From positions 3,348,001 through 3,412,000 of the forward strand of contig CAKKNE010000002.1 of assembly GCA_918797485.1 (NCBI GenBank): a DNA stretch of 64,000 bases, in the 5' to 3' direction. The position numbers and the translations under genes were made by a program. This document shows, piece by piece, positions 1,284-55,570 of this stretch (within the stretch, counting starts at the first letter, position 1; each line of letters starts with the position of its first letter). The notes under the pieces are model-generated. The model saw only the letters and a program-made list of their open reading frames with translations. It did not search any database and was not told where the DNA came from. This DNA comes from Pelagomonas calceolata (taxonomy: Eukaryota).

Positions 1284-2390
1284 ATGGCGAAGAAGCCCAA
1301 GTCCCCCAAGCCCGCCGACCCGATCCTCAACAAGCGCAAGGTCGGCCCGGCGCCCACCGTCATCTCGGCGAACCTCAAGACGATGAAGCGGTCGAACAAG
1401 GAGCTGGCGGCGCAGCGCGAGGCGCGCATGCGCAACGCCGCCGAGCGCGCCGCGCCCAAGGAGAAGAAGGAGCGGTTAGCTGTGAGGGGCGAGGCGACGC
1501 GCAACGCGCAAGCCGGTAAATCCAGCAGTGATACTCCCATGAAGGACAGCGGCGCGAAGGAGAAATCCGCGCTCGCTGTGGTCCTGGCGAAGTGCTTCAA
1601 GAGCCTCGCGCGACCGACGGTCAAGCTGCAGCACCCGCAAGCCATCAAGATGACCGAAGCGTTGGGACTGGGCCAGCGACATTTGCGGATCATGAGGGAC
1701 CAGTTCGATGATATAGATGTGGACGGTTCCGGCAATATTGATGCGGTGGAGCTCTTCGAGGCCATGGGCGAGGTCAGGTCCAAGATCACGGAAGAGCTGT
1801 TCGCGATGATGGACATGGACGGGAATGCGAGGTTGGACTTTGACGAGTACGTCGCCGTGGCGCTGTCGTACTGCATGTATACCAAAGATGATATATTGAA
1901 ATTTTGTTTCGATCTCTTCGATCTGGATTCAGGAGGTACGATCGACGAGAAGGAGTTCACGGAGATGTGCGTCGCCGTTTCCGCGGGCGACCCCTTGTTC
2001 TCGGGGAATTTTCGGATGGCTCTGGAGAATTTTGATACGAACGACGATGGTCTTATTGATTTTGACGAGTTCCGGAACTTGAATGATCGGTACCCGATGA
2101 TCCTGCATCCGGCCTTTCGCATGCAGGACAAGCTCCAAAAGTATACGTTAGGAGAAGAAGAATGGGTCAAGGTCATGGAGAACATTAATTACTGGCAAAA
2201 AATAAAAGAGTACACGGACAAGGAGGGCGAGGCGCCTCCCTCATCACGGTGGGAGCGGTTCCGGGAGAAGTATCTGCGGAAGTGCTTCGGCCACCCGCCC
2301 GTGGACCTCGAGTACATCGCCTCCCAATCGAAGATGGAGCAGGCTAAACGAGCAGCGGCCGAGGAGGCGCGGCTCAAGGCCGGGGGCTAA
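1284..2390 (+). CDS. EF-hand calcium-binding protein with basic N-terminal extension
   Basis: Four EF-hand loops: DVDGSGNIDAVE, DMDGNARLDFDE, DLDSGGTIDEKE, DTNDDGLIDFDE. Confidence 0.85.
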   Translation: MAKKPKSPKPADPILNKRKVGPAPTVISANLKTMKRSNKELAAQREARMRNAAERAAPKEKKERLAVRGEATRNAQAGKSSSDTPMKDSGAKEKSALAVVLAKCFKSLARPTVKLQHPQAIKMTEALGLGQRHLRIMRDQFDDIDVDGSGNIDAVELFEAMGEVRSKITEELFAMMDMDGNARLDFDEYVAVALSYCMYTKDDILKFCFDLFDLDSGGTIDEKEFTEMCVAVSAGDPLFSGNFRMALENFDTNDDGLIDFDEFRNLNDRYPMILHPAFRMQDKLQKYTLGEEEWVKVMENINYWQKIKEYTDKEGEAPPSSRWERFREKYLRKCFGHPPVDLEYIASQSKMEQAKRAAAEEARLKAGG

Positions 2391-2641
2391 GTTAACTTTA
2401 GTAATAGAGGTACTCCGCCGAGGCGGCCGCGCGGCGGTGGCGTCTGCACGAGCCCTGCTCTTCTTGCTGGTAGGTGGAAGCGCGAGTCATCCGGCTCTGT
2501 GCGAGGCGCGGGCTGCACATCGATCAGCAGATCTCACTTGCTAGTGTCTTACAGGCCGCTTGCGCGCGATCTAAACACGATCGGCGCGGCCCTTGGTTGA
2601 CGCCCCCCACGGGCTGGAGTTAAAACACGCGCCTTAGGCCC

Positions 2642-3193
2642 TCACGACGCGGGTTTCGAAGGACAGTTCTCCTTGAGCCAGTCGAGACCCTCGTACAACC
2701 CGTCGCCCGTCGTCGCGCAGCAGGCCTGGATGTACCACTTCCGCCCTCTCAAGGAAGACAGCTGGAGCGCCTCGGCGAGTTGCGCCGCGGGCGCCGCGTT
2801 CGGCAGGTCCTGCTTGTTCGCGTACACTAGTACCACAGCGTCCCGCAGCTCGAACTGGTCGAGCAACCCATGTAATTCGTCCTTCGCTTGTGAGAGTCGA
2901 TCCCGATCATTGCTATCAACAACAAAGATCACGCCCTGCGTGTCCGAGTAGTAGTGGCGCCAGAGCGGCCTTATTTTATCTTGCCCGCCAATGTCCCACA
3001 CCGTCAGCGTCAGATTGCCGTACTCGATGGCCTCGACGTTAAACCCGATGGTCGGGATCGTCGTCACGACCTCGCCCAGTTTGAGCTTGTAGAGGATGGT
3101 CGTCTTGCCCGCGGCGTCGAGGCCGACCATGCACAGTCTGGCATCGAGCTTCGTCCAGCCGTCGAGCCCCATGAGGGAGAAGAGCGCGCCCAT
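2642..3193 (-). CDS. ARF: ADP-ribosylation factor (ARF1-like small GTPase)
   Basis: [10 protein letters not shown]-loop, [34 protein letters not shown]-terminal MG myristoylation site. Confidence 0.95.
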
Positions 3194-3617
3194 GATTCGT
3201 GGGCACCGGTTTCGACGCTTGCAAGGACGCCGGCGCCGGCTTTCCAGCCAGGAGGATTTGTAATTACGAGGGTGCTACGCGGTCTGCACGGCTCGCCGCG
3301 GCGGCGGCGCTGCGGCTGCGGGTCGGCTGGCGACGGAAGATATCGCACGATGCTGCTTGCTGCAGTATCTCGAGCAGAGGCCGTGAAAAACCCAAAGCTG
3401 ACCAAGCTTAGCGTCTGTAAGACACTAGATTTTCAAGCATAGTATGCTTGGACCAAAACGCCGTGGTTTTGGCACATACGGACCACCAAGGGTCCTCCCT
3501 GCATCGCCTCGCTGCCGGAGCATCGCTCCGATTCGCTGCGGCGCACCGCTACGAGCCGGAGAGCCTGCCGCCAAAAGCAGAGCTAGCGCGCGACGCGCGT
3601 AGACACCAGCGGGACCC

Positions 3618-6065
3618 ATGGGCAAGGCCCAGGAGAAGCGCGAGGCCGCCGAGAAGGCCGCGGCCAAGAAGGCCGAGAAGGACGCCAAGAAGGCGGCGCT
3701 GAAAGAGGCGCGCGCGGCGAAGAAGGCGTTAAAAGCGCAAGTCAAGGAGGCGGTGGAAGCGCAGAAGAAGCCGCTTCCTCCCAAACCGGAAGAATTGAAC
3801 GAAAATAATTGGAATGACGCATCCCAAAAAGCCCTAGACGACGCGTTACGTTCCCATGCCCCGCTGCCGAACCAGGTCGAGCGGTGGCGCTTGATCAGTC
3901 GAGACGTGCCGTCGTACTCGTCGCGGGCCTGCGCCCTACGCTTTTTGGAAGTGAGAAAAAATATAAAAAAACTCAAAGATTGGGAGGCCGAGTGCCGCGC
4001 CGTGACGCTCGCGAACGCCGCGCTGTCGAAGTTGGACGGGAGGGCGAAGAAGGACATCGAGGAGAAGGCGCGACGAGCCTACCAGGAAAAGGCCGGCGTC
4101 AAGACGGAAGAAGAAAAAGCGGCAGAGGAAGCGCGGCAGCTCGCGGAGGCCAAAATGGGTAGGGTGCTCAAGGCCGACGACGGTGCTGCGGCTGATTTAC
4201 TGGCCGCGCAAGGGGTAGTAGCGACCTTCGCCGCACCTCCAGCGAAAGCTCATAGGAACGTCAAAGACGTGAATGTCAGTAATCTCGGCGTCTCGTTCCA
4301 CGGCGCGCCTATATTGGATGGGACGACGTTCGTCATGAACTGGGGCAATAGATATGGCTTTGTTGGTCGCAATGGTTCGGGCAAGTCTACGGTTATGAGG
4401 TGTATCGGCGCTCGAGCGATTCCCATACCCGCGGCGATCGACATCTATCACTTGACGACCGAATACCCACCGACCGACGAAACGGCCCTGGAAGCGGTCA
4501 TGAAGGTCGACGACGAACGAAACGAGTGCGAGCGGGAAGTAGACGAACTCAACGACCTGATGGCTTCGGACGCATTGGACGAGGACGCGCACAACGACGC
4601 CGCGGACCGGTTGAACGTTTTATATGAAAGGTTGGAGGAGCTGGACGCCGCCACCGCGGAAGCTAGAGCAACTGATATCTTAACGGGATTAGGGTTCTCC
4701 GCGGACCGGCAAAAACAGAAAACCAAGGACTTTAGCGGTGGCTGGCGGATGAGGGTAGCTCTAGCGCGCGCTCTATTCATCCAGCCCGCTCTCTTGTTAT
4801 TGGATGAACCTACCAACCACCTGGACATGGAGGCCGTCGTCTGGCTCGAGGACTACCTGTCGAAGTGGCAGAAGATGCTGTTCATGGTCTGCCATTCCCA
4901 GGACTTCCTGAACAACGTGTGTACACATATCTGCCATCTGGACCAATTGCACAAACAGCTTGTGTACTACAAAGGCAACTACGATAGTTTTGTCGAAACG
5001 AAAAGGGACCTACAGACGGAACAGATGAAGCGCTGGGAGGCGGAACAGGCGGACTTAAAGCAGATGAAGGAGTACGTGGCCAAGTTCGGCCACGGGACCG
5101 CCAAATTAGCGAGACAGGGCAAGTCGAAGGAGAAATTGTTAGCGAAAAAGATGGCGTCGGGCTTGACGGAGAAGCCCGTCGAAGAATTATCGCTGAAGTT
5201 CCGGTTTCCCGACCCCGGGCACCTCAGCCCTCCCGTCCTCCAAGTGAACGAGTTGACCTTCGGATACGGAGACGGACCGAACTTGTACGAAAATGTCGAC
5301 TTCGGCTTGGATCTGGACTCGAGAATCGCGTTGGTCGGCCCGAATGGTGCTGGTAAATCGACATTAGTGAAAATCATCAATGGCGAACTTACGCCGCGAC
5401 GAGGCGCGGTGCGACCCCACGGCCACCTCAAGATGACGAAGTTCACGCAGCACTTCGAGGACGTGTTGGACTTCACGAAGACGCCCCTGCAGTGGTTCAT
5501 GGACCGGTACCCCGAAACTACAAGAGAGGACGCGCGGAAGTGGCTCGGGAGGTACGGCACGTCCGGCGTCGTGCAGCAGCAGACGATGTCGCAGCTCTCC
5601 GAAGGCCAGAAGGCCAAGGTCGTTTTTTGTCATATGGCCAAACAATCAGCACACATCCTGCTGCTGGACGAGCCGACGAATGCACTAGATATGGAAATGA
5701 TCGATTCGCTCGCGGACGCCATCAAGGCGTTCAAGGGCGGGGTCGTACTTGTAAGTCACGACATGCGATTAATTAGCCAAGTGACGGAGGAGATCTGGAT
5801 CGTCGATAAAGGTTTAAGGAAGTACGAGGGCGACATCGGGAATTTCAAGATGGACCTGCGGCGGCAGATGAAGCTCGAAAAAGAAGACAAGAAGAAGAAG
5901 AAGTCTCCCAAATTGGCCCCGAAGGCGCCTTCACCTCCTCCGTCTTTTAGGCTGGACCAGGCGCCGCCGCCCGCGCCGCCGCCGGCGCGGAACCTGGACG
6001 CGCTCCGCGGTACAGCGCCGGCCGCGTACGTGCCGCCCGGGCGGCGGGGCGACGGCGCGTGGTAG
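3618..6065 (+). CDS. ABC-F family ATPase (ABCF2-like) with N-terminal SANT/Myb domain
   Basis: Two ABC domains (GRNGSGKST/FSGGWRMR/LLLLDEPTNHLD and GPNGAGKST/LSEGQK/LLLDEPTN), no TM segments. N-terminal WNDASQKALDDAL...ERWRLISRDVP...ACALRF resembles SANT. Confidence 0.92.
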   Translation: MGKAQEKREAAEKAAAKKAEKDAKKAALKEARAAKKALKAQVKEAVEAQKKPLPPKPEELNENNWNDASQKALDDALRSHAPLPNQVERWRLISRDVPSYSSRACALRFLEVRKNIKKLKDWEAECRAVTLANAALSKLDGRAKKDIEEKARRAYQEKAGVKTEEEKAAEEARQLAEAKMGRVLKADDGAAADLLAAQGVVATFAAPPAKAHRNVKDVNVSNLGVSFHGAPILDGTTFVMNWGNRYGFVGRNGSGKSTVMRCIGARAIPIPAAIDIYHLTTEYPPTDETALEAVMKVDDERNECEREVDELNDLMASDALDEDAHNDAADRLNVLYERLEELDAATAEARATDILTGLGFSADRQKQKTKDFSGGWRMRVALARALFIQPALLLLDEPTNHLDMEAVVWLEDYLSKWQKMLFMVCHSQDFLNNVCTHICHLDQLHKQLVYYKGNYDSFVETKRDLQTEQMKRWEAEQADLKQMKEYVAKFGHGTAKLARQGKSKEKLLAKKMASGLTEKPVEELSLKFRFPDPGHLSPPVLQVNELTFGYGDGPNLYENVDFGLDLDSRIALVGPNGAGKSTLVKIINGELTPRRGAVRPHGHLKMTKFTQHFEDVLDFTKTPLQWFMDRYPETTREDARKWLGRYGTSGVVQQQTMSQLSEGQKAKVVFCHMAKQSAHILLLDEPTNALDMEMIDSLADAIKAFKGGVVLVSHDMRLISQVTEEIWIVDKGLRKYEGDIGNFKMDLRRQMKLEKEDKKKKKSPKLAPKAPSPPPSFRLDQAPPPAPPPARNLDALRGTAPAAYVPPGRRGDGAW

Positions 6066-12600: not shown

Positions 12601-12802
12601 GGTTGCTCAAGGACGGCGTGAAGCCGTCGCGACGTTTTGCAACGCGGTCTAGGGCGTGGTGTCGCACGCAGTCGCGTGTCAGTACCAGCTTTAGTTGTCC
12701 GTGCGGCCAAAGCTGCGCCGCGTGTCGTCCAATTTGCAATGGCATAATCACTAGCGACCGGTGAGACACTAGCAACGCAGCGAGTCCTAGCAAGCCCCTT
12801 AC

Positions 12803-14599: not shown

Positions 14600-16077
14600 C
14601 TAGAGCGCGTCCGCCGTGAACGCGTTGATCATGCGCAGCGCGGCCGCGGGCTGGTCCATCGGCACCATGTGGCCCGCGTCGAGGACGCGCAGGAAGCTGA
14701 GCGGGCCGCTCGTGCGCAGCTCGCCGGCCTTCTTGGCCCCGGCGGGCCAGTCGGCGACGGCCGCGGCGCGGAACGCACCCTGGCCGGGCCACGGCAGGGC
14801 CAGGGTCCAGGCCTGGTTGCCGAGCCAGTTGCATATGTAGTCCTGGTCGCCCGCGTAGATCAGAATGCGCACGCCCGCGCCCAGTAGTTCCGGCAGGAGC
14901 TGCTGGTAGTTCTTGATGTAGTCGCCGGACAGCTCGAAGCGGATCGTCACGCTCTTCGAGCAGTCGGCCCAGCGGCCCTTCACGCCCAGGGCCGCGCGCA
15001 CGTCGTCGCGCTGCAGGTACTTCTTCACGTTGGAGAAGTCGTAGCAGAGCGGCGGCACCGCGCACTTGGCGCGCATGTCGTAGGGATTCATGCCCGTGAG
15101 CGTGTAGGGGATCTCGAGCGACATCTCGCAGAGCTCCAGCGCCGGTAAGCACGTGGCGGTCGTGTTCTGGCACGCGCGGATGCCGGCGATGCACGCAGGC
15201 GTCGCGGCGGCCATCACGGCGTGCTCCGCCTTGCCGACGGCGGCCTTGTGGCCGTTCGTGCTTATGATCATGTCCTTGTAGTACGCGAACCTGTGTGGAA
15301 ATCAAAATTTTACGGCGCGTTCGTGCTGAATCATCGCGTCGTCCTCCACGCCATCGACGCGACGCCTGCTCGATGGTTCCTCACCGCTCGACCGAGCCAG
15401 GACGGCCGCGTCATCGCCGAGAAATGACTTAGTGAAGAATTGTCGGGTGCACCCGACGCACTGGTTGATTTCCACACAGACGAGAACTGTATCTCAGGGT
15501 CCGTCAAGCCGTTGCCGATGGCCAGGCCCTTCAGGTTCTTTCGGAGCGTGCCGTTGCGGAAGAGACCCGAGGAAACCGCCGGCACGTAGTGGCCCGCGTA
15601 GGACTCGCCCGTGACGTAGAGGTCGTGATTGCTGAACTTGCCGTGAATCCGGAACCACTGGACGAGAAAATCGACCATGTCCCGGGCGACGCCGGCCTCG
15701 GTCGAGTCCTTGGCGCCGTAGGAGAAGCCCGTGCCGGCGGGCTGGTCCACGTAGATGAGCGTCGCGTTGCGATTCCACGAGTAGGGGTTCAGCTTCGTGG
15801 CCGTGCCGTCCGCGTTGACTTTGCACGGGCCGTTCTCTCCGAAAAGAGCCACCGCCGACGAGCAGCCCGGCCCGCCCGTCATCCACAGGATCACGGGGTC
15901 CGTGGCCGGGTCGTTGCGGGACTCGAAGGCCCAGTAAAAAAGATGTTTCGCGCCCGTCGACAGATCAATATAGCCGCTGGACTGCTTGACGCCGGGGTCG
16001 CAGAGGCCGGCGGCCTGCGGCTTGTTGAACGCGGCCGCGCCGTGCGCCAGGCAGAGGAGTGCGGCGAGGCTGCGCAT
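14600..16077 (-). CDS. Serine carboxypeptidase (peptidase S10). Exons 16077-15488 and 15290-14600 (426 aa)
   Basis: Signal peptide; WMTGGPGCSS, ENGP, DQPAGTGFSY, GESYAGHY (catalytic Ser), GDQDYICN, AGHMVPMDQP. Joined across an introner as DPEIQFAYYKDM. Confidence 0.93.
15291..15479 (+). mobile_element. Introner element 3, antisense to its host gene (intron 15487-15291 on the minus strand, GT-AG)
   Basis: Perfect 14-bp TIRs CTGTGTGGAAATCA (15291-15304) and TGATTTCCACACAG (15466-15479). TSD ACGCGAAC / ACGAGAAC. Shares GCCGAGAAATGACTTAGTGAAGAATT and CACTGGTTGATTT with element 1. Confidence 0.93.
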
Positions 16078-18856: not shown

Positions 18857-18880
18857 TGCTAGTGTCTTACAGGCCGCTAG
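18857..18880 (+). promoter_or_regulatory. Recurrent intergenic motif TGCTAGTGTCTTACAGGCCGCTAG (consensus copy)
   Basis: Identical copy at 36202-36225. Near copies at 2539, 3408(-), 12751(-), 13607(-), 16157, 24664(-), 26144, 47295, 49366(-), 53276, 63271. Regulatory function is inferred. Confidence 0.7.
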
Positions 18881-19037
18881 CCACGCGAAGCCTAAACGCG
18901 CGGGGAGATTAACTAGCGTATCGAGTAACACACTAGCACTATTCACTCAGCCGCAAAACGCACGTAAAACCTCCGAAACCAATGATTTGGAGCCAAGCGG
19001 GCGTTAAGAAGCTAAGTGAGTTCATCGAAATGCTCAG

Positions 19038-25943: not shown

Positions 25944-26294
25944 CGCTGCGTCGGCGTCCCGCGCGCTCGACGCTGCCGCAGGGCCGGTGTTGCGCCTCAG
26001 CGCTTGCACAGCGATCGCGAAAACGTCGCTACGAGTTATGCGTATACTGTAGTCTCCTTGGTCCTGGGTGCAGCGGTGAGTTCTGCACTGCTGCGCTGCT
26101 TACAGTAAGCTGAGCTGAGCAGACGGGTTTGCTTGCTAGGTGCCTAGTGTCTTACAGGCCGCTAGCTGCAGGGCGCGGCGCGGGGGCTCATTTTAGCGTG
26201 CCAGGGGCGAAAAGGTGACAGGGACAACGCTGTTTGGGCTTAGTGGTACGCTGAGGCATAACCGAACAAGCGGTGCGGGCTAGCACGACACCTA

Positions 26295-27281
26295 ATGGGC
26301 GCCAAGCGCGAGCCGCAGCGGCGCTGGCACCGCAAGCTCGCCGCCGCCGCGTGCGCACTAGCGCTGGCCACGCTCGCGCTGCGCTTGGCCGCGTCGCGGC
26401 CGGGCGCCGCGCAGCACTGGCTCGCGTCGGTCAACATCGAACAACGAGCGGGCGTGCCCCGGAGGTGCGGCTCCGACGGGCGAGCCACTTATGCGTGGAT
26501 GAACCCGGTCCAATTCAACCGGACGTTCACGCGCGCGCGGGGCACGGCGCTGTTTCTGGTGGGCTGCGGCCACTCGGGGACGACGCCGCTGACCGCGCTG
26601 CTGCAGCGCCACCCCGGCGTCTTCGTCTACGCGCCGTCCGCGGACCTGGAGTACGCGATCAAGCCGGACAGCTTCTCCCCACTACTGGGGTCGTCTCAAA
26701 ACGACCGGGCGACCTTGGACCGCCTCGCACGCGGCAACGCGTGGCTCGTGAAGAGTCCCTCGAACGTCTGCCGGCTGGGCTACATCCTGATGCACGTGCC
26801 GTCGGCGCGCGTCGTCGCGTTGGTGAGAGACGGGCGCGACGTCATGTTGAGTTTGATGGAGCGGTACCCGGACGCGGACCCCGCGGGCGACTTGTGTCTC
26901 GGGCGGTGGGTCCACGACAACACTGCATTATTACTGTACGAGCGGGACCCGCGGCTCCTGATCGAGCGGTACGAGGACCTCTTCGAGGGCGCGCCGCGGT
27001 ACCCGTCCCTCCGGCGGATTTTGGGGCACTACGGCGTCACCTATGATAACGTCGCGGACCTGATGGCGCGCCCCGCGAGCGACGCGCATGGGTCCACGTC
27101 CGCCAAGGCGTCCGCGGCGCACACGCGCCTGCGCGCGCAACAGGTGTCGAAGCCGCTCCGCACGGCCGCGCCGCGCTGGCCCGCGGAGCTGAGCCCCGCC
27201 CTGAAGCGGACCTTCAAGCGGGACAAGGCGGCCGTGAGGCTGCTCGTGCGGTTCGGCTACGCGAACGATAGTAATTGGTAA
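26295..27281 (+). CDS. Sulfotransferase-family protein (type II membrane anchor)
   Basis: 5'-PSB loop GCGHSGTT, KSP, 3'-PB motif VRDGRDVMLS, RYEDL. Confidence 0.8.
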   Translation: MGAKREPQRRWHRKLAAAACALALATLALRLAASRPGAAQHWLASVNIEQRAGVPRRCGSDGRATYAWMNPVQFNRTFTRARGTALFLVGCGHSGTTPLTALLQRHPGVFVYAPSADLEYAIKPDSFSPLLGSSQNDRATLDRLARGNAWLVKSPSNVCRLGYILMHVPSARVVALVRDGRDVMLSLMERYPDADPAGDLCLGRWVHDNTALLLYERDPRLLIERYEDLFEGAPRYPSLRRILGHYGVTYDNVADLMARPASDAHGSTSAKASAAHTRLRAQQVSKPLRTAAPRWPAELSPALKRTFKRDKAAVRLLVRFGYANDSNW

Positions 27282-36054: not shown

Positions 36055-36394
36055 TTCTGGGGCGATTTCACTGCGGATTTCCGCTGTATGGCCGCCGCTA
36101 TGGGGCAGCTTGAGTTTGACGGGGCTGCGGGCAGCCCGGGTGCGTTTGGCGACGCGAAACGGTCGCTAGTGATAGTACCATCGTGCGGGGCACCCCCTGC
36201 TTGCTAGTGTCTTACAGGCCGCTAGCCAATCGCGCGTGGAAGCCGCGCCCCTGCAGACTAACCGCAGACAGGACAACTACGCGGACAACTACACGAGTAG
36301 ACCGCCGGGCCGACGCGGGCGAGTTCGAGGGCGAAGCGGCGCCGCGCGCGCGGCGGGGAGGAGGCCTTGTCATGTATGTTTAAGTTGAATTAAT

Positions 36395-47018: not shown

Positions 47019-47241
47019 CTCAGGCTCCGGCTAGTTACGTCGCGGGGTCCCCGGTACCCCTCCCGCGTCTCAGGCTCAGGCTAGTTACGTCGCTGGGTCC
47101 CCCGTACCCCTCCCGCTCCCCCCGGGCCCACCCGTCCGGCTGGACGCTGTGGCTGTGGCTAGTTACGTCGCGGGGTCCCCCGTACCCCTCCCGCTCCCCC
47201 CGGGCCCATCCGTCTGGCTGGACTAGGACGCAAGGGCTGAG
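47019..47241 (-). repeat. G-rich dispersed repeat, three tandem units (one truncated); same family as 28378-28586
   Basis: GGCTAGTTACGTCGCGGGGTCCCCCGTACCCCTCCCG units at about 47029, 47079 and 47157, ending GGACTAGGACGCAAGGGCTGAG. Confidence 0.9.
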
Positions 47242-47461
47242 TCGCAGGGACTCGCACGCCCCCCCTCTTTTTTGGGACGACCCCCCGTCAGCTTTGCTAG
47301 TGTCTTACCCGCTAGCTGCCGTGGCCGCTCACAAGCTAAGCTAGCACTTGGCACTGCCGCAGACCTCTCGCAATTGCAAAAGGCAGCCGTGCCGGTCTGC
47401 GCACCTCGTCCCGAGGCTGCCCGCGACGAGTGGTTGCGCCAGGAACGCGCGCGTAGCAAAA

Positions 47462-47907: not shown

Positions 47908-49287
47908 CTACCCGTCCTCGTTGAACACCGTCGAGAAGTCCACGTCGGCGGGCTCCGGCGGCGCGGGCGCGGGCGGCGCGAAGTCGCCGAAGCGCGCGGG
48001 CGGCGGCGGGTCGAGCAGCGGTTCGAGCCGCGGCTCCGGCGCCGGCCCCGGCGCGGGCTGCGGTCTCAATAAATTCGCGCGGAACGCGCCCGCGCGCGCG
48101 ACGGCCGCCGTCTCCACGGACCCCGCCGTCGATAATAATGCAGGCCGCCGCGCGAGGGGCCGCGCGTCGAGCCAGGGCGCCGGCGGCAGCACGTCCGGGG
48201 CATAAGGCGCCGGCGCGCCCGCCGCCGCGGCACCATCCAAGTCGCGCGCGAGCGTATTCTCTATAGACGCGAGCCGGTCCGGGTCCACGATGGGCTGGGC
48301 GTCGTCCCGGTCGACGACTTCAAAGCGCGTCTCGGCCGTGACGGCGTCGTCGTCCTGGACCATGGCCACGCGCGCGCCAACAACAGAAAGTTTGAGGTTC
48401 TCGAAGCTCGCGGCGATGTCCTTGAGCAGGCCCGGTCTATCGGGGGCCGCCACTCTCAAAGTCGTGCACGGCTCGAGCTCCTCGGTCACGCAATCATAGA
48501 CCGCCTGCTGGAGCGCGTCCGTATCTTCCAATGCTCGGTTGGTGGCGACCGCGACCAACTCGAACTCGTCGCGACACACGCCATTCCCAAAAGACTCGGC
48601 CCGACATTTCACTACGTTTAAACCGCGCCGGTTGAAGACGTCGCTGATGTCGCCCAACAAACCCGGCCGATCTAAAGCCACAACCCTACAAAGGTTCGTG
48701 CCGCGGCCCGACGCCTTGAGGGTGACGGAGGGTTCGAGCGGCGCCTGATTTGCAGACCCCAGGTCCAGCCAGCTTCTATCTCTTTTATCGAGGTCTTCGT
48801 CGACCCACGACGAGCCCTGGAGGCTTTCGAGCCACGGGTCGTCGGGCGCGAGCCCCCGCGGTTTTTTTACGGAGGGCCCGAGGGGCCCGTGCACGAAGCC
48901 CGCATCTAGCGATCGCAGGAACGCCGCGCGCGCGCTCTCCAAAGCAACGCGCTCGCGCGCCGACAGCTCGCCCCGCTTCTTGAAGCACTGCTTGCCGTGC
49001 GCGCGCGTCGACGAGAGCTTTTTGGTGATGCGCATCGGCGCGCAGCCCAACAACTCGGCGAGGGTGGCTCTCAATGACTCGCCGCCACTTAACCCCGGCA
49101 GCCGCCCGTTCGCGAAGTGCTCTATCACCACCGCGGCGTAGTCGCACTCGGGGGCCGTCCACTTGCCCCTTCTTGTGGTATTTTGGGCGGGGGGCGCGGC
49201 GATGGGGTCCCAGGTGGCCGAGAGCTGGCCGAGCTGGGCGTCCAGCGAGCTCAGGCTCTCGCCCTCGTCCGGGGGGGTGGTTTCCAT
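47908..49287 (-). CDS. Myb-like (RRGKWT...PMRITKK) domain + two ACT domains
   Basis: RRGKWTAPECDY...F..G.L...LR..L..LL.C.PMRITKK; ACT repeats VVALDRPGLLGDISDVF...LNV and VAAPDRPGLLKDIAASF...LSV. Confidence 0.78.
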   Translation of the reverse strand: METTPPDEGESLSSLDAQLGQLSATWDPIAAPPAQNTTRRGKWTAPECDYAAVVIEHFANGRLPGLSGGESLRATLAELLGCAPMRITKKLSSTRAHGKQCFKKRGELSARERVALESARAAFLRSLDAGFVHGPLGPSVKKPRGLAPDDPWLESLQGSSWVDEDLDKRDRSWLDLGSANQAPLEPSVTLKASGRGTNLCRVVALDRPGLLGDISDVFNRRGLNVVKCRAESFGNGVCRDEFELVAVATNRALEDTDALQQAVYDCVTEELEPCTTLRVAAPDRPGLLKDIAASFENLKLSVVGARVAMVQDDDAVTAETRFEVVDRDDAQPIVDPDRLASIENTLARDLDGAAAAGAPAPYAPDVLPPAPWLDARPLARRPALLSTAGSVETAAVARAGAFRANLLRPQPAPGPAPEPRLEPLLDPPPPARFGDFAPPAPAPPEPADVDFSTVFNEDG

Positions 49288-49534
49288 GCCGCGCCGGTGC
49301 TGAAAACCCTCGCAGGATAAGACTGTGATTGACGGCTGGGCAGGGCCGATTGCAGCTCGGTGTCGCTAGCGTCCTGTAAGACACTAGCACAGCCCTAGTT
49401 GCAAAACATCAATAAGCTAGACACACTTTCGACATCACCACTGCTGCTGCGTCGTTGCAGCAGCAGCAGTAAAATGTATCTTTTCGCACTATTCGTCGCC
49501 ACCGTGAACGCCCTCAAAACCTATTACTACTAAA

Positions 49535-51580
49535 ATGGGCTCCGCTGTCTCTGTCAGCCCTAAGGTGCCGGCTGCCGACGACGCCGCCCTCGCGGCCCTG
49601 ACAAAGACGGAACTGCAGCGGGTCATGGCGGCGCGCGGCGTCGGCCGGCCCGACGTACCCTTAATACACGAGCGGGTCTTCCGCGTGGCTCCCCTGGCTC
49701 GCAGCGTCTGGTCCTACCTCGGGCACGACAACATGCCGAAGGAGCGAGACAAGTACGTCCGGGTGACGACGATGCCCGGCGCGCCGACGTCGGACTACCC
49801 TCTCCTGGAATGCTGCTCGGACGGCCTCTCCGACCTGTCGTCTCTATTTGCTGCGGTGTCGGGCTCGAGCACGTGTTCCACGCCGCGGTTCGCGAGTGCC
49901 CCGTTGCACGGTGGTTCGCATGGAAACGGAACCCCGCTGAGCCGAGCCACCGGCAACGGCATCTCCTACCCCTGGCGTGTACGCCCCGAGCCGGAGTTCC
50001 CGGACGGCATCGGTGGGCGCAAGGCGGAAACGGCCTGGCGGGAGGCCACCCCCGGTGATCGCCCTTTCTGGACGGTAGTTTCGTACTCGGGCTACTCGCC
50101 CGATTCTTGGCGCACAGCCTACGGCCCTCTGCATCTTTACTCGCCGACGACGGACCTGCCCATCTTCGACGGCGAGGGCAACTACGGCGGCAAGCCGAAC
50201 GTCCTCGGCACGCTCTCGGGCGGGCCGAAGACGTCCCAGCTCCAGACCGCAACGTCTACTGTCCGGGCCTGCGAGGCCCACGTCCTCGATGCCGAAAATG
50301 TCGGCGTGCGTTCGCTGGCGGACGTGCCGCAGTGCGTGCAAGCCATCGTCGAGAAGCTGCCGCCGGCCTCCGTCGGGCGCAAGCTCATGGTGCACGCCCT
50401 CTCCTTGGAGCCCGGCACGGCGGACAACATGGCCGTCTGCGTGTGCCTGATGGGCCACGAGGTGGCGAAGCTGCGCGCCATCGTCAAGTTCGGCTCCGTC
50501 AAGGTCGCCACGGCCTGCGCGTGGCTCGAGCGCAAGTGCGGCGTGGCCGAGAACCACGTCGGGGACTGCTACCACCCCACCAAGGCCATGGGTCTCTACT
50601 TGATGCGCCGCGAGCTGCTGCAGCGCAACACGTTCTTCTACGACGAGGCGTGCCAGGAGCCGGTTGTATTTAAAACCGGTTTCACGGGCAACCTCGTCCA
50701 GGTGGGTCAGACGATCTACCGCGAGGCGGCCAATGCCAACGGGCCCGCGCTCGCCTACGAGGCAGTGACGCTCATTAGGAACGAAAGATCGGCCAAGTAC
50801 GCGACGCTCATCGCCATCAACCCGCCGGAGGGCGTCGACGGGCCGGGGCTCGTCGGGAGGTCGAGCAAGGTCGAGGCGCCGATGGTCGGCGCCTTCGGCG
50901 AGGACATCGACCACGTCTCGGGGTGGCACCACTCGACCATCTTGGACCAGATCAAGAAACGCCGCTGGTTCAAGCGCGAGGCCGACGAGGCCGTCGTCAT
51001 GGTCCCCTACCGCCACTCCGTCGGCGGCGACGGCGGCAACATTCTCTGTTTCGCGACGAACGGCGAGAAGGTCGTCTCGTTGGCGACGCACCTCACGGAG
51101 GACCTGCTCCGGGTCGGCGGCGAGTACCCGTCGTACCTCATGGACCCCAAGTTCTTCGAGAAGGTCGTCATCGGGCGCTCGTGGGCCAACACGAACCCCC
51201 CGGAGGAGCGCAAGGACCGTCTCCACAATACGGTCCTGACGCGCCGCGAGGTCTCGAACCACGAGAAGATGCTCGCGGTCGCGCTCGTGGCGTCGGGCGC
51301 CATATCGCAGGCGGACCTCGACACGTCCGACTGGCTGCAGCTCAAGGAGGACTCGCCCATCAGCGCGGCGTCCTTCCACGGCGTCGCCTACTGCACGTTG
51401 CATGGTCTCGTTAGGACGTCGGAGATCGGCACGGACGTCGGCGGCGTCGGCCGCGCGGGCAAAGACGTCGCGTGGCACGCCGAGCTGCGCGCGGCCTCGG
51501 CGCGGCTGTCGGCCGCGAAGGCGTTGGTGCAGCTGTCCGGGACCGAGTCGGCCCCGAAGGCTTTCTACGCCGACGTGTGA
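49535..51580 (+). CDS. Hypothetical protein (681 aa)
   Basis: Long ATG ORF with strong GC3 bias and globular-like composition; no family recognised. Confidence 0.65.
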   Translation: MGSAVSVSPKVPAADDAALAALTKTELQRVMAARGVGRPDVPLIHERVFRVAPLARSVWSYLGHDNMPKERDKYVRVTTMPGAPTSDYPLLECCSDGLSDLSSLFAAVSGSSTCSTPRFASAPLHGGSHGNGTPLSRATGNGISYPWRVRPEPEFPDGIGGRKAETAWREATPGDRPFWTVVSYSGYSPDSWRTAYGPLHLYSPTTDLPIFDGEGNYGGKPNVLGTLSGGPKTSQLQTATSTVRACEAHVLDAENVGVRSLADVPQCVQAIVEKLPPASVGRKLMVHALSLEPGTADNMAVCVCLMGHEVAKLRAIVKFGSVKVATACAWLERKCGVAENHVGDCYHPTKAMGLYLMRRELLQRNTFFYDEACQEPVVFKTGFTGNLVQVGQTIYREAANANGPALAYEAVTLIRNERSAKYATLIAINPPEGVDGPGLVGRSSKVEAPMVGAFGEDIDHVSGWHHSTILDQIKKRRWFKREADEAVVMVPYRHSVGGDGGNILCFATNGEKVVSLATHLTEDLLRVGGEYPSYLMDPKFFEKVVIGRSWANTNPPEERKDRLHNTVLTRREVSNHEKMLAVALVASGAISQADLDTSDWLQLKEDSPISAASFHGVAYCTLHGLVRTSEIGTDVGGVGRAGKDVAWHAELRAASARLSAAKALVQLSGTESAPKAFYADV

Positions 51581-51846
51581 CCGCGCACGCATCTCTATCG
51601 GCACGAAGGCCGCTTCTTCCCTCTCCCCCACGCTTCTTCAACAACTGACACCATCTCTGCCCTCCCCTAATTGGTTAAGGCACATGTGTACTTATTTTGG
51701 CCTCTTGGCTGCGTCCTAGTGCGTCTCTGAAGCTAGGTAAGCGCGATCAGGCGAAGCATAGGCGCACACCGCTAATTGGCAGCACATCTTCGGCTTTTGC
51801 GATCGCCAGGCACCGCAGCCGCCGCCGCAAGGCCAAAAGCAAAGCC

Positions 51847-52617
51847 ATGCTCCGCTCGCTCTTCGGCCGCGCGGCCGAGGACGACGCCGACGCCGAGCAC
51901 TTCGACCACTGGCAGACGACGGACCTCTGCTGGAGCGCCGGGGCCGAGCGGCGCGCGCTCGCCCGGTGGCGGCTCTGGGGCCGGCGCATGGGCGGCGAGC
52001 GCAAGCAGGTGCGCAAGTCGCCGCGCCGGCTGCCGGCCGCCTACCTGCCCGAGATGGGCGCGACGCGCCGGGCCGGGGGCGAGGCGCCGCCGCCGCCGCC
52101 GTCGCGGCGCGCCGTCGTCCTCGAGGACCTGCGGAGCAAGGGCCACGTCGTGGCGAACGGCGGGCGCTACGGCGGCGACTACGTCTGCTACGAGGGCCAC
52201 CCGGACAGCTGCCACTCGTCCGAGACGGTGCGCGTCGTCGGCGAGCACGAGCGGCTCGAGGCGGCCGACGTGGCGGCCTACTGCCGCGTGCAGGGCAACG
52301 TGTCCAAGCGCGCGGTCTTCGCGGCCGTCGACCCGGCGTCGCACGACGTGCTCTACGTGGGCTGGGCCTTCGACGCGCAGCTCTCGCGCGACCCCCTGAA
52401 GCGGCTCGAGCGGCGCTTCGCGCGAAAAATCCAGGACGATTCTAAATTAAGCGTCGAGGCCGCGGCCGGCGACGGCCTCGGCCCGGAGGACTGCGCGCGC
52501 CTGACCGTGGCGCAGCTCCGCGAGGCGCTCGAGGCGCGGGGGCTCGACGCGACGGGCCTCAAGGCCGCGCTCCAGGTGCGGCTCTACGACGCGCTGACGG
52601 CGATGGAGACGTCCTAA
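51847..52617 (+). CDS. tRNA-splicing endonuclease catalytic subunit (SEN34-like) with C-terminal SAP domain
   Basis: DLRSKGHVVANGGRYGGDYVCYEGHPDSCHS...RVQGNVSK (Tyr/His/Lys triad); LTVAQLREALEARGLDATGLKAALQVRL (SAP). Confidence 0.8.
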   Translation: MLRSLFGRAAEDDADAEHFDHWQTTDLCWSAGAERRALARWRLWGRRMGGERKQVRKSPRRLPAAYLPEMGATRRAGGEAPPPPPSRRAVVLEDLRSKGHVVANGGRYGGDYVCYEGHPDSCHSSETVRVVGEHERLEAADVAAYCRVQGNVSKRAVFAAVDPASHDVLYVGWAFDAQLSRDPLKRLERRFARKIQDDSKLSVEAAAGDGLGPEDCARLTVAQLREALEARGLDATGLKAALQVRLYDALTAMETS

Positions 52618-52706
52618 GTACACCTAGCGTCTCGTTACACGGCGCCTCGGCCCCTTGTGGGCCGGTCAATGTTCGCCGCGCACAGCTCGATCAGCCTCGA
52701 TGGCCT

Positions 52707-53180
52707 CTAGTTGGCCGCGCACAGCTCGACGGCCTCGGCGTACTCGCGGCGGTCGACCAGCCGCTTCAAGCTCCGTCGCAGCTCCTCGTCGCCGCCCTCG
52801 AGCATGCCGGCCAGGTAGGCGTTCGCGACGCGCTCCTCGTGGCAGATCCCGCTCTTCGGTCCGTACTTGTGCTGGGCCTCGAAGTCCCGCGGCACGACGC
52901 ACACGCGCCGCGCGAGATCGAAGATCGCGGCCGCGTGCGGCGCCGGCTCCGTCTCGCCCTCGCGCTTGTAGCCGACGAGCTTGTGCGTGGCGACGGGCAC
53001 GAAGATGTCGTCGTCGTCCGAGGCGGAGCCGTCGTCGACGAAGTTCAGCGCGCGCCGCGGCGCCGCGTCGGCGCCGGCGTAGGCGAAGCCGCCGAATTTT
53101 TTGCCGCTCTTCTTCGACGAGTCGGTGACGCGCGCCGAGGCGGGCGTGGCGCGCTTCTTCGTGGGCGTGCGGCTGGCCAT
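52707..53180 (-). CDS. Hypothetical protein, weak resemblance to the DNA polymerase delta p12 (POLD4) motif
   Basis: ATG ORF; DFEAQHKYGPKSGICHEERVANAYLAG loosely resembles the F-x(3-4)-YGP-x2-G-x4-R motif. Confidence 0.55.
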   Translation of the reverse strand: MASRTPTKKRATPASARVTDSSKKSGKKFGGFAYAGADAAPRRALNFVDDGSASDDDDIFVPVATHKLVGYKREGETEPAPHAAAIFDLARRVCVVPRDFEAQHKYGPKSGICHEERVANAYLAGMLEGGDEELRRSLKRLVDRREYAEAVELCAAN

Positions 53181-53320
53181 TTTTTTTACGCGCGGGCGGG
53201 CGCGTCGTTGGTGGAGCGGTACTGCGCTGCGCGGTGGCAGTAGCGACGGAGAGCGGTAACAGGCTTGGAGAGCTGGCTAGAGTCTTACAACCGCTAGATA
53301 ATCACGCTAGCGGCCTGTAA

Positions 53321-54489
53321 GCTTGTCATACTAGCCCGCACTGCCTACTAGCTCCGGCGCCGGCACGCCGGGTGCCTGGCCACCCAGCGTGCCGGCGTGG
53401 GCGGTGCGGCTGCCTGGGTGCCCCGTAAGGGCCGCGCCGCCGTCCGTGCCCCAAGGGCTGATGGGGGCAGGCTTTTTTCCCCCGGGCGATGCGACGGCGG
53501 TGCCGTGCGGCACTGCCCCATAAGCACGCAACCTCCGTACGTCGCCGCACGACGTCGTTGCTCAGCGCTTTTGCGATATGACGTTCGCCCAGAACCCACG
53601 AACGACTGACAAACAGGGTTTTTAAAAGTGATGAGGTTTGATTGTAAACGCGGGCGTCAAACGAGGCGCGCTCGACAAGGCGTAGACGAATAGCGAAACG
53701 GGCTCCACGACCAAAACCTGTTGGCACGGTCCTCCGCGGGGTTCGTGGGAACTGCGCGGACCGCTTGGTTGCTCGGGGAAACCCTCTATCTGTCACTTTT
53801 TCCCCTAAAAATGTTAATTCCTATTATTACTAAACGGGTACTCTTGGGGACAGACTTCGGCGAGCCATTTGTTACCCTTAGCCTACGAAGGCACAAAACC
53901 CCGTCTATGGGCCATCGACGCGAACCAGAGGAGTGCCCTGAGGCCGTGGGAGCGGCCGAAGAGTCGGGGTTTCTGCTCCCGGCGCGGCACCGCGCGCTGC
54001 GACGTTTTAAGTGCAAAAGCACACTTTTCTATTACCATGGAGCCTAATTGACGAGTCGAGGCAGCCTGGTGGTAAGTGCCGAGGCCGCACTTCATCCGTA
54101 GGTACGCCAATTGCCGCCCATTCACCGTCGCGTACGACACCGTGTCGTCGGCGACGTACCGCAGACGGTCGGCATGAGGTGTTGGGGCCTCAACGAAGGT
54201 TGGCGCCTCGGGGCACATCCATGAGACGGCCTCGGAGCGCGGGCATGCGCCGCGGACGGCCCATCTCGCGAAACGGGAGAGTATCGCTTCTGAGAGCCTG
54301 TGGTTTCAGGGTGCTCATGCTCGTCAATGCGGCCGCGGACTGCAACGCGGCAGCCCGCGCCATGGTCGGGACCACGGACGGGCCCGCACCGCCAATCCGC
54401 GCTCCAATCGACCGAATAGAGGCCGAGTATGCCCCCTGAGAGCACCCCGGCGTCATGAGAGCCAGCTAGTGCGGGCTAGTATGACAAGC
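53321..54489. mobile_element. Non-autonomous TIR element (~1.17 kb) inserted into the intergenic motif
   Basis: Perfect 22-bp TIRs GCTTGTCATACTAGCCCGCACT (53321-53342) and AGTGCGGGCTAGTATGACAAGC (54468-54489). Flanking direct repeat TGTAA. No transposase motif recognised inside. Confidence 0.88.
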
Positions 54490-54685
54490 TGTAAGACACT
54501 AGCAAGCATCACGCTGCCGCTTTACTTAGAACTCAGTTAAGGGCACAGGTACGCGCTATTCTCACCGGAGAGGTTCAAGATCTGTCCTCGCTGCCGCTGA
54601 TATACAACCGGGGCGCTTGGCTGGAAGAGCACAGCTAGGCGACCGCAGAGCGCTAGCACACGCACAGCGAGCAGAGCGACCAACC

Positions 54686-55570
54686 ATGGTGAAGATGAAG
54701 AAGGGCGACCGGGGGCGCCAGGCGTGGCACGACACGGTGTCGCAGCTGGCGCGCGAGACGGGCGCGGCCGTGCCGGGCAACTCGCCGCAGAAGCGCCGCG
54801 AGACGCGGAAGCGCGTCGCGAAGCAGACCAAGGCCGCGAGCCGCTGGATCGACGACGCGGGCCTCGACGCCCGAGACCTGACGGCCTGGGCGCGCGTCGA
54901 CGCCATGCTCGACGCGCCGAAGACGTCGCACCTCATCGCGCTCGACGCGGACGACAGCGACGGCGGCGAGTACCGCGAGGACTCGCACTCCGACGTCGAC
55001 ATGGACGAGGACGAGCGGCGGGCCGCGCGGCGCGCCAAGAAGAAGGACGCGCCGAAGAAGAGCCGCGAGCGCAAGGCCCCCACGAAACGCAAGAAGAAGC
55101 GGAACCCCGAGGAGGAGCGGCGGCGCCAGCGGCACCGCCAGCGCGTCCTGAGCCAGGTGCTGCTCGACGACTTCGCGCCGAGCCGCGGCGCGCCGGCGCC
55201 GCGGGGCGCGGACTACGTCGGCGCGGCGGCGCGCGCGCCGCGGCCCGCGCGCGCGCCGCACCGCGTCTGCGTCGTGACGGGCAAGGCCGCGAAGTATCGC
55301 GACGCGGCGACGAACCAGTTCTTCGCCAACGCCGACGCCGGCGCGCTGTTGCGGGAGAACCCGCCGCCCTGGCTGCGCCTCGGCAAGCACGGCAGCGCGT
55401 ACCACGAGGCCATGCTCCAGATCCGGAGCGAGCGCGAGGACGCGGGGGAATCGGCGAAGGCGACGGCGGCCGCGCCGCGCCTTAACACCGACGGATCGCC
55501 GCTCGCGCCGGGCCAGAAACCGGGGGACCCGGATCCTCCCGGATACTTCAGGGGGCGGAAGTTCGACTAG
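54686..55570 (+). CDS. SWR1/INO80-type chromatin-remodelling subunit-like protein (YL1 C-terminal domain)
   Basis: DYVGAAARAP...HRVCVVTGKAAKYRDAATNQFFAN is YL1_C-like; acidic/basic nuclear-type N-terminus. Confidence 0.7.
   Translation: MVKMKKGDRGRQAWHDTVSQLARETGAAVPGNSPQKRRETRKRVAKQTKAASRWIDDAGLDARDLTAWARVDAMLDAPKTSHLIALDADDSDGGEYREDSHSDVDMDEDERRAARRAKKKDAPKKSRERKAPTKRKKKRNPEEERRRQRHRQRVLSQVLLDDFAPSRGAPAPRGADYVGAAARAPRPARAPHRVCVVTGKAAKYRDAATNQFFANADAGALLRENPPPWLRLGKHGSAYHEAMLQIRSEREDAGESAKATAAAPRLNTDGSPLAPGQKPGDPDPPGYFRGRKFD

Follow-up and report, generated by a model that had tools for sequence, protein, structure and literature searches.

A non-autonomous inverted-repeat transposon of Pelagomonas calceolata with likely specificity for one base of an abundant motif upstream of transcript starts

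Introduction

Strict sequence-specific insertion is common in retrotransposons and in bacterial insertion sequence (IS) elements. Among eukaryotic DNA transposons, a superfamily of target-specific elements, Dada, was presented in 2013 as the first such superfamily, and the sub-terminal repeats of Dada elements recur in the Dada targets (Kojima and Jurka, PMC3706591). Here, we analyze an element with terminal inverted repeats (TIRs), 1171 bp in length, which divides one copy of a ~24-bp host motif in the genome of Pelagomonas calceolata. The element is located in a stretch of 64,000 nucleotides (contig CAKKNE010000002.1 of assembly GCA_918797485.1, positions 3,348,001 to 3,412,000 of the forward strand), which was analyzed as a whole and is hereafter referred to as the window; all positions are those of the window. 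We assign a probability of roughly 0.8 to the interpretation that the element is a non-autonomous transposon with perfect 23-bp TIRs, inserted at one fixed base of a motif that lies just upstream of transcript starts, and we predict that its family is guided by recognition of this motif, likely of its 2 CTAGC boxes, through a transposase encoded elsewhere.

Results

Structure of the element and its insertion site

The element was delimited by an inverted-repeat search, which yielded perfect 23-nt arms enclosing 1125 nt, and its terminal sequence is AGCTTGTCATACTAGCCC (Table 1). The original prediction, made from the letters of the window alone, had placed a 1.17-kb TIR element in the motif, and the search bears this out at 1171 bp; the TIRs, described there as perfect over 22 bp, are indeed perfect, their longest perfect length being 23 nt. 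In the window, the flanks read ...GCTAGCGGCCTGTA up to the element and GTAAGACACTAGCA... beyond it. Removal of the element together with one GTA, TGTAA, or CTGTAAG yields CTAGCGGCCTGTAAGACACTAGCA, which is identical to the perfect motif copies at 18857-18880 and 36202-36225, in agreement with the earlier claim that excision regenerates the consensus. The ambiguity of the boundary, also anticipated, is evident from the flanks: the window copy carries GTA, TGTAA, or CTGTAAG on both sides, the 2 longer versions reaching 1 or 2 nt beyond GTA on each side and overlapping the first TIR bases, and the target-site duplication, the length of which is read from the window copy alone, measures 3, 5, or 7 bp with TIRs of 23, 22, or 21 nt, respectively.

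With up to 3 mismatches allowed, the TIR 23-mer was found at 2 places in the whole window, both corresponding to the arms, and in 0 of 100 shuffles, and a BLAST search of the element against the window returned no second copy within the 64 kb. A 19-nt TIR-like stretch at 26270-26290 (15/19 matching positions; BLAST E = 2.6) is located directly before the ATG at 26295 and is probably a chance match; it lies ~100 nt from the motif copy at 26142. The tetranucleotide CTAG occurs 4 times in the 1171-bp element, every time as part of an ACTAGC box located at most 33 nt from an end.

The window insertion is real. The stretch occurs in public runs of one cultured organism, of an organism with a second label, and of seawater and marine metagenomes. 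Both junctions are bridged by contigs of 3 isolate runs, and the left junction is bridged in a fourth run, which carries the second organism label; examples include a 2155-nt contig covering 52600-53413 with 0 differences and a 4679-nt contig covering 54029-55200 with 3 differences. The interior of the element is represented in isolate assemblies by short contigs with variant letters at ~2-3 times the depth of the flanks, which indicates the presence of ~2-3 copies in the isolates. In one variant copy, detected in 4 DNA runs, positions 53495-53630 (136 nt) are replaced by 24 other letters, and in RNA, this variant is represented chiefly by reads of the other strand (41, 55, and 54 in 3 runs).

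None of the 5 open reading frames (ORFs) of the element produced a Pfam match at the cut-off, and Rfam returned no match to the element at the gathering score and none at E values up to 1, nor any family in the window or at the insertion site. Because its coding capacity is undetectable and ~2-3 copies are present in the isolate runs, the element is a non-autonomous member of a site-specific family. Miniature inverted-repeat transposable elements (MITEs) are smaller than roughly 0.8 kb and attain high copy numbers; at 1171 bp and ~2-3 copies per isolate genome, the element is too large and too rare to be assigned to this class.

Metagenomic copies and target specificity

Further copies were sought in metagenome contigs using the TIR alone, with no flanking sequence and with 3 degenerate positions taken from a variant copy. 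The scan returned 6 contigs with 9 element ends, of which 7 fit the pattern and 2 more (on contigs L004 and L005) have slightly different TIRs. The TIR was also sought in viral contigs and in contigs of prokaryote genomes, with 0 matches in each collection. The inverted repeats expected of a class II DNA transposon, 100% complementary over 23 nt in the window, carry 1-3 changes at each of the 9 metagenome ends (9/9), and, where they can be aligned, the metagenome copies share 95.3-98.6% identity with that of the window; copies are 95-99% identical among themselves.

At all 9 metagenome ends, the junction with a motif half falls on the very base seen in the window, bringing the count to 11/11 when the window ends are included. 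The left half precedes the element at 3 of them, with ...GCTAGCGGCCTGTA directly followed by AGCTTG (L003 and both ends of L004), and the right half at the remaining 6, with ...CTAGTGTCTTAC directly followed by AGCTTG (both ends of L001, L002, both ends of L005, and L006, the last in degenerate form). The distal flanks, 8 of which are distinct on the 6 contigs besides the window locus, differ from each other and from the window, the common part being restricted to the motif-proximal ~28 nt, and their G+C content ranges from 46% to 65% (53-65% without the 13-nt flank of L005); these G+C values indicate that the metagenome copies come from other strains or species.

That 9/9 ends abut a motif half at the same base, with unlike distal flanks, supports target specificity of the element family. 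By our estimate, a random insertion would hit this base with a chance of ~2e-4 per event, given ~15 target sites per 64 kb. The proposal that a transposon family targets the motif is thus upheld by ends recovered with a flank-free pattern, and the outcome named beforehand as its refutation, copies lying in unrelated sequence, was not encountered among the 9 ends. It had been expected that a tabulation of TIRs and flanks would also fix the length of the duplication; carried out on metagenome contigs, the tabulation bore out the specificity but did not fix the length.

End B, recognizable by its inner sequence, adjoins the left motif half in 2 loci (L003 and L004) and the right half in 5 (the window, L001, L002, L005, and L006). 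Since either half can be found next to the same end, the element inserts in both orientations. Among the metagenome flanks, there was no filled/empty pair, and no flank matches the window outside the motif; the only longer match, at 78% between positions 206-324 of L002 and window positions 15308-15424, reflects the 3' end of a serine carboxypeptidase homologue rather than a motif site. The window itself contains 14 uninterrupted paralogous copies of the motif.

Abundance of the host motif and its position relative to transcript starts

Apart from the split copy, the window contains 7 matches to the motif with up to 3 mismatches, versus 0.00 expected. Once those with a weak left half or an indel of one base are counted, the motif reaches 15 copies in 64 kb, the split one included. 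It has the architecture of a near-palindrome, GCTAGC-N13-ACTAGC, and can be written in an extended form as (G)CTAGCGGCCTGTAAGACACTAGCA(AGCA), with about one copy per 4 kb. Downstream of 10 of the 15 copies, at a distance of 38-352 nt, lies the same-strand ATG of a credible ORF, and the corresponding genes are functionally unrelated. A search of the literature, which included the 13-mers of the motif and did not extend to supplements, found no description of the motif or the element.

Transcript ends were mapped with stranded poly(A) RNA reads of the cultured organism over 49000-55200, the library orientation having been calibrated on 4 flanking genes. RNA 5' ends fall ~20-40 nt downstream of the motif. 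On the left-hand side of the element, a pile-up at ~53254 (5/9 molecules in one run) lies ~21 nt after a degenerate motif copy. This is the second motif copy that the original prediction had described as intact and 10 bp to the left of the insertion: the copy is there, on the opposite strand, and it is one base shorter than the motif and differs from it at several positions. On the right-hand side, the pile-up at 54542 comprised 22/56, 9/30, and 5/17 molecules in 3 runs. Plus-strand reads were absent over 53968-54381, which shows that transcription of the right-hand gene starts afresh past the surviving half of the motif. Judging from its position and from ordinary RNA-seq, the motif appears to be a common, oriented, promoter-proximal element. 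As regards the earlier conjecture that the motif serves as an intergenic safe haven, the motif is promoter-proximal rather than inert spacer, yet the adjacent gene is still transcribed.

Four motif copies, at 2539-2562, 12751-12774, 18915-18938, and 47295-47318, face the 3' ends of genes and lie 29-330 nt past the stop codon; antisense or non-coding RNAs could start from these copies, which could alternatively have a role at the ends of genes. The copies at 18857-18880 and 36202-36225 are located between tandem genes, 158-170 nt after the upstream stop codon, with TGTAA at their center. Such placement would be compatible with a possible double role of the motif in tandem pairs, as an end signal and as a promoter.

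Convergent transcripts of the element and shared CTAGC boxes

Two convergent RNAs, whose starts are located 47-63 nt inside the element ends, are transcribed inward from the element. The RNA from End A reaches a depth of ~450-570, as compared with 6-60 for the neighboring genes, with reads originating from at least 2 copies, and the RNA from End B reaches a depth of 20-100. Variant letters are present in 36-64% of the element RNA reads, which implies that several copies are expressed alike and points to promoters owned by the element rather than to read-through. Synthesis of the abundant RNA by RNA polymerase III appears unlikely, judging from internal T5-T6 runs that are passed with no drop in depth.

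Each junction of the insertion reforms a box-spacer-box arrangement, with 17-18 nt between the boxes versus N13 in the motif. The transcript of the host gene starts 40 nt from a box (54502 to 54542), and that of End B starts 38 nt from one (54465 to 54427).

The strong stem-loop near End A, ~50 nt in size and located 30-85 nt inside the end, was compared with the same region of L001, L004, and L005. Variability within the element is greatest at the apex of this stem-loop, with 35 differences in one 50-nt bin; the other alignment bins mostly hold 0-15 differences, and the terminal bin of End A holds 24. Nevertheless, the apex is self-complementary in all 4 copies (4/4), with folding energies of -40 to -56 kcal/mol. 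This combination of variability and self-complementarity points to selection for structure or to hairpin-templated repair.

Genomic setting

The G+C content of the window is 68.6%, and its genes, which include those for ARF, ABC-F, SNF2, DnaJ, WD40, ribosomal L23, and YL1_C proteins, are densely packed, with high third-position G+C. The element lies between divergent genes, and the intergenic region would measure ~330 nt without it. The genes at 1284-6065, encoding EF-hand, ARF-type GTPase, and ABC-F proteins, have clearly lower third-position G+C than the remainder of the window, and the local G+C content is 57-63%. Downstream of the SNF2-family gene, at 47023-47223, ~2.5 tandem units of 78 nt are located beside the motif copy at 47295 and are unrelated to the element. 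Hundreds of RNA reads align to short G+C-rich stretches at 52102 and 53061 before diverging (518-807 loose-ended reads per run); these reads probably originate from a highly expressed locus elsewhere that has a short stretch in common with the window.

Table 1. Coordinates of the element, the host motif, and the flanking features in the window.
Feature	Position	Strand	Basis or remarks
Non-autonomous TIR element	53320-54490	.	Repeat search, BLAST against the window, Pfam/Rfam searches
Left TIR (End A), AGCTTGTCATACTAGCCCGCACT	53320-53342	+	23 nt, 100% complementary to the right TIR
Right TIR (End B)	54468-54490	-	Perfect complement of the left TIR
Two ACTAGC boxes of End A	53330-53335, 53347-53352	+	CTAG positions, sequence
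Two ACTAGC boxes of End B	54465-54470, 54475-54480 (reverse complement)	-	CTAG positions, sequence
Strong stem-loop near End A	53351-53405	+	Repeat search, alignment of copies
Abundant RNA inward from End A	53367-53803	+	Fragment ends at 53367/53377 and 53795/53803
Second RNA inward from End B	54038-54427	-	5' pile-up at 54427; 3' pile-ups at 54038/54069
Left half of the split host motif, GCTAGCGGCCTGTA, with GCTAGC box	53306-53319	+	Sequence
Right half of the split host motif, GTAAGACACTAGCA, with ACTAGC box	54491-54504	+	Sequence; begins with the right GTA copy (3 nt)
Left copy of the possible target-site duplication	53315-53321	.	Sequence; GTA at 53317-53319
Motif sites (15)	2539, 3417, 12761, 13616, 16157, 18857, 18925, 24675, 26142, 36202, 47295, 49376, 53275, 54491, 63271		
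Degenerate motif copy serving the left-hand gene	53275-53297	-	Transcript 5' end at ~53254
5' end of the right-hand gene's transcript	54542	+	38 nt after the surviving right half
Left flanking gene, 157 aa	52707-53180	-	No Pfam family at the cut-off; transcribed away from the element
Right flanking gene, YL1_C domain	54686-55570	+	PF08265, E 4e-6; transcribed away from the element

Discussion

The family represented by the element likely recognizes the motif as its landing site, with a precision that is rare for a eukaryotic DNA transposon. In the mechanism that we envisage, DDE-type cut-and-paste integration would proceed through a staggered cut in the central CTGTAAG, giving rise to the 3-7 bp duplication. 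The CTAGC boxes common to the target and the ends would be read by the transposase or by an accessory DNA-binding protein, and we infer that a single DNA-binding activity may read the boxes in both places. The box-spacer-box arrangement rebuilt at each junction, with N17-18 in place of N13, would allow the host start site to survive and the ends to act as inward promoters, and, in a genome so poor in spacer DNA, the abundant motif would allow integration at low cost.

Several points weigh against this interpretation. The sample is small, since a single window and 6 short metagenome contigs of low coverage contribute 11 ends in all, and the scan accepted only exact matches to a 23-mer in which 3 positions were degenerate, leaving diverged copies, wherever sited, unsampled. 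All 3 complete metagenome copies (3/3) bear like halves on both sides, with no direct repeat (left-left in L004, right-right in L001 and L005). We tentatively attribute the like halves to recombination between copies or, as the coverage is 2.5-6.5x, to chimeric assembly over a repeat of 1.17 kb; collapse of 2 insertions in a divergent motif pair and inversion between copies are further possible explanations. A duplication of the palindromic AGCT was considered and rejected, as it requires CCTGTA-AGCT-GTAAGAC target sites, of which the window has none. An empty allele of the insertion locus, joining ~53319 to ~54491, was not seen in 4 DNA runs; apparent skips, with only 20-21 letters on one side (21 on the shorter side for that from 53297 to 54488), correspond to other motif copies and not to empty alleles. 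Neither the transposase nor an autonomous partner was found, with the metagenome TIR scan yielding only ~1.17-kb non-coding copies, and the enzymatic mechanism is therefore unproven. As for the motif, 4/15 copies are directed toward a gene of the opposite strand, at its 3' end, and 1/15 lacks an ORF within 1 kb, which argues that it is not simply a promoter of protein-coding genes. Finally, the start sites correspond to fragment-end pile-ups in ordinary RNA-seq, the counts of element RNA are summed over several copies, and the pile-up at 53367/53377, located within a strong and copy-variable hairpin, may be an artefact.

The single-base precision at 11/11 ends would also be compatible with site-specific recombination by a tyrosine or serine recombinase, in a Crypton-like fashion, with CTGTAAG serving as the crossover core and not as a duplication. 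The 21-nt perfect arms that flank a 7-nt sequence also found at the target center, as well as the CTAG boxes located beside this core in both the target and the element ends, fit such a scheme, under which the circular form would read ...TATGACAAG-CTGTAAG-CTTGTCATA..., with perfect inverted arms around a 7-bp core, similar to lox and FRT. However, the asymmetric CTGTAAG core would fix the orientation, yet End B adjoins the left half in 2 contigs and, in 5 loci, the right half; moreover, a recombinase gene was not found, and the element has no detectable coding capacity. We consider recombination of this kind improbable. It is still harder to sustain that the motif halves belong to the element, as longer and variable termini, and that the intact 24-bp motifs are collapsed ends or excision products in the absence of any targeting. 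The like halves of the 3/3 complete metagenome copies, which lengthen the inverted repeat by 12-14 nt, would be expected under this scenario, and the motif itself is near-palindromic. Nevertheless, the 64 kb contain 14 intact motifs, as opposed to ~2-3 element copies per genome, and the motif has a fixed orientation, 38-352 nt before ATG in 10/15 cases and ~20-40 nt before transcript 5' ends. Furthermore, the window copy has one half of each kind, and the same element end is seen with either half, so that neither half is a constant component of the element.

The least credible of the alternatives, to which we give hardly any weight, holds that insertion is random or biased toward open chromatin and that purifying selection in a gene-dense genome leaves copies only at a tolerated spot. 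With ~200-300 nt of spacer between genes, most insertions in such a compact genome would be harmful, and the copy number of the element is low, as this explanation would have it; but selection cannot yield the identical base in 11/11 ends, since each intergenic region offers many other non-coding positions, and the site splits a promoter-proximal element, which is not obviously neutral.

The preferred reading, targeting of the motif by a transposase encoded elsewhere, could be extended to a promoter-homing and promoter-mimicking transposon. In this view, its ends share CTAGC boxes with what would be the commonest core-promoter motif of the host, and one activity, either a host promoter factor or a related transposase, would both fire the convergent transcripts and steer integration to the exact center of the promoter, with the junctions rebuilding working promoters and rendering the insertion nearly harmless. 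We regard this extension as tentative and, on balance, doubtful. If true, no earlier eukaryotic DNA transposon would have had such specificity, to the single base, for a promoter element of RNA polymerase II. Should the CTAGC boxes common to ends and target account for targeting as well as transcription, the choice of target by a transposase would be linked to promoter recognition. Motif targeting by itself would define a family that has TIRs and selects a single base of a motif located near the promoters of protein-coding genes, and would show a way for mobile elements to persist where spacer DNA is almost absent. The family may also provide a compact natural system for targeted integration, and it highlights a 24-bp motif of the host that is oriented and very abundant.

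Integration directed to promoter regions or to extended targets has precedents. Ty3 integrates at the start sites of RNA polymerase III, and Ty1 and Tf1 integrate upstream of genes, in all cases through integrases and host tethers and without known specificity for a single motif. PIF/Harbinger transposons prefer an extended palindrome as their target, duplicate 3 bp (usually TWA), and rely on a DDE transposase and a Myb-like protein. The element described here resembles both groups in being directed to a promoter region or an extended target, and a 3-bp duplication is one of 3 possible boundary readings of the window copy, although GTA differs from the usual TWA. MuDR of maize is autonomous, with ~200-bp TIRs, 9-bp duplications, no known sequence-specific target, and convergent transcripts from the TIRs. 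The window element likewise has 2 convergent transcription units starting near the inverted ends, although, unlike in MuDR, its 2 RNAs are devoid of a convincing ORF. Pokey, whose target is TTAA, is a piggyBac-type transposon. It is similar to the window element in being a eukaryotic TIR transposon with a preferred site in a multicopy sequence, the 28S rDNA of Daphnia, but it also inserts elsewhere in the genome, according to the Dada description (PMC3706591), whereas off-target copies number 0 among the 11 ends analyzed here.

Dada elements share several properties with the window element: strict insertion at one position of a conserved multicopy sequence (here, at 11/11 ends), use of the same site by non-autonomous derivatives along with short repeats near the ends that are also present in the target, and the occurrence of some copies (Dada-tL) whose flanks do not come from one target copy (PMC3706591). 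They differ in having only short sub-terminal inverted repeats and no TIRs, as opposed to the perfect 23-bp TIRs of the window element, in generating duplications of 6-7 bp, where the duplication in the window is ambiguous at 3-7 bp, and in targeting small nuclear RNA and transfer RNA genes (U6, U1, and tRNA) rather than an intergenic motif upstream of protein-coding genes (PMC3706591). Given that the absence of TIRs is a defining feature of Dada, the element was not assigned to this superfamily. Finally, bacterial elements such as IS1397 and ISPpu9 use an abundant, short, intergenic near-palindrome as a specific landing site, as does the window element, but they are prokaryotic and autonomous, have transposases of other families, and target repetitive extragenic palindromic (REP) sequences (PMC1525189, PMC12288879), which are not known as promoter elements. 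In contrast to these REP-targeting IS elements, the element described here resides in a eukaryotic host, and its target lies upstream of transcripts captured in poly(A) libraries, which are probably products of RNA polymerase II.

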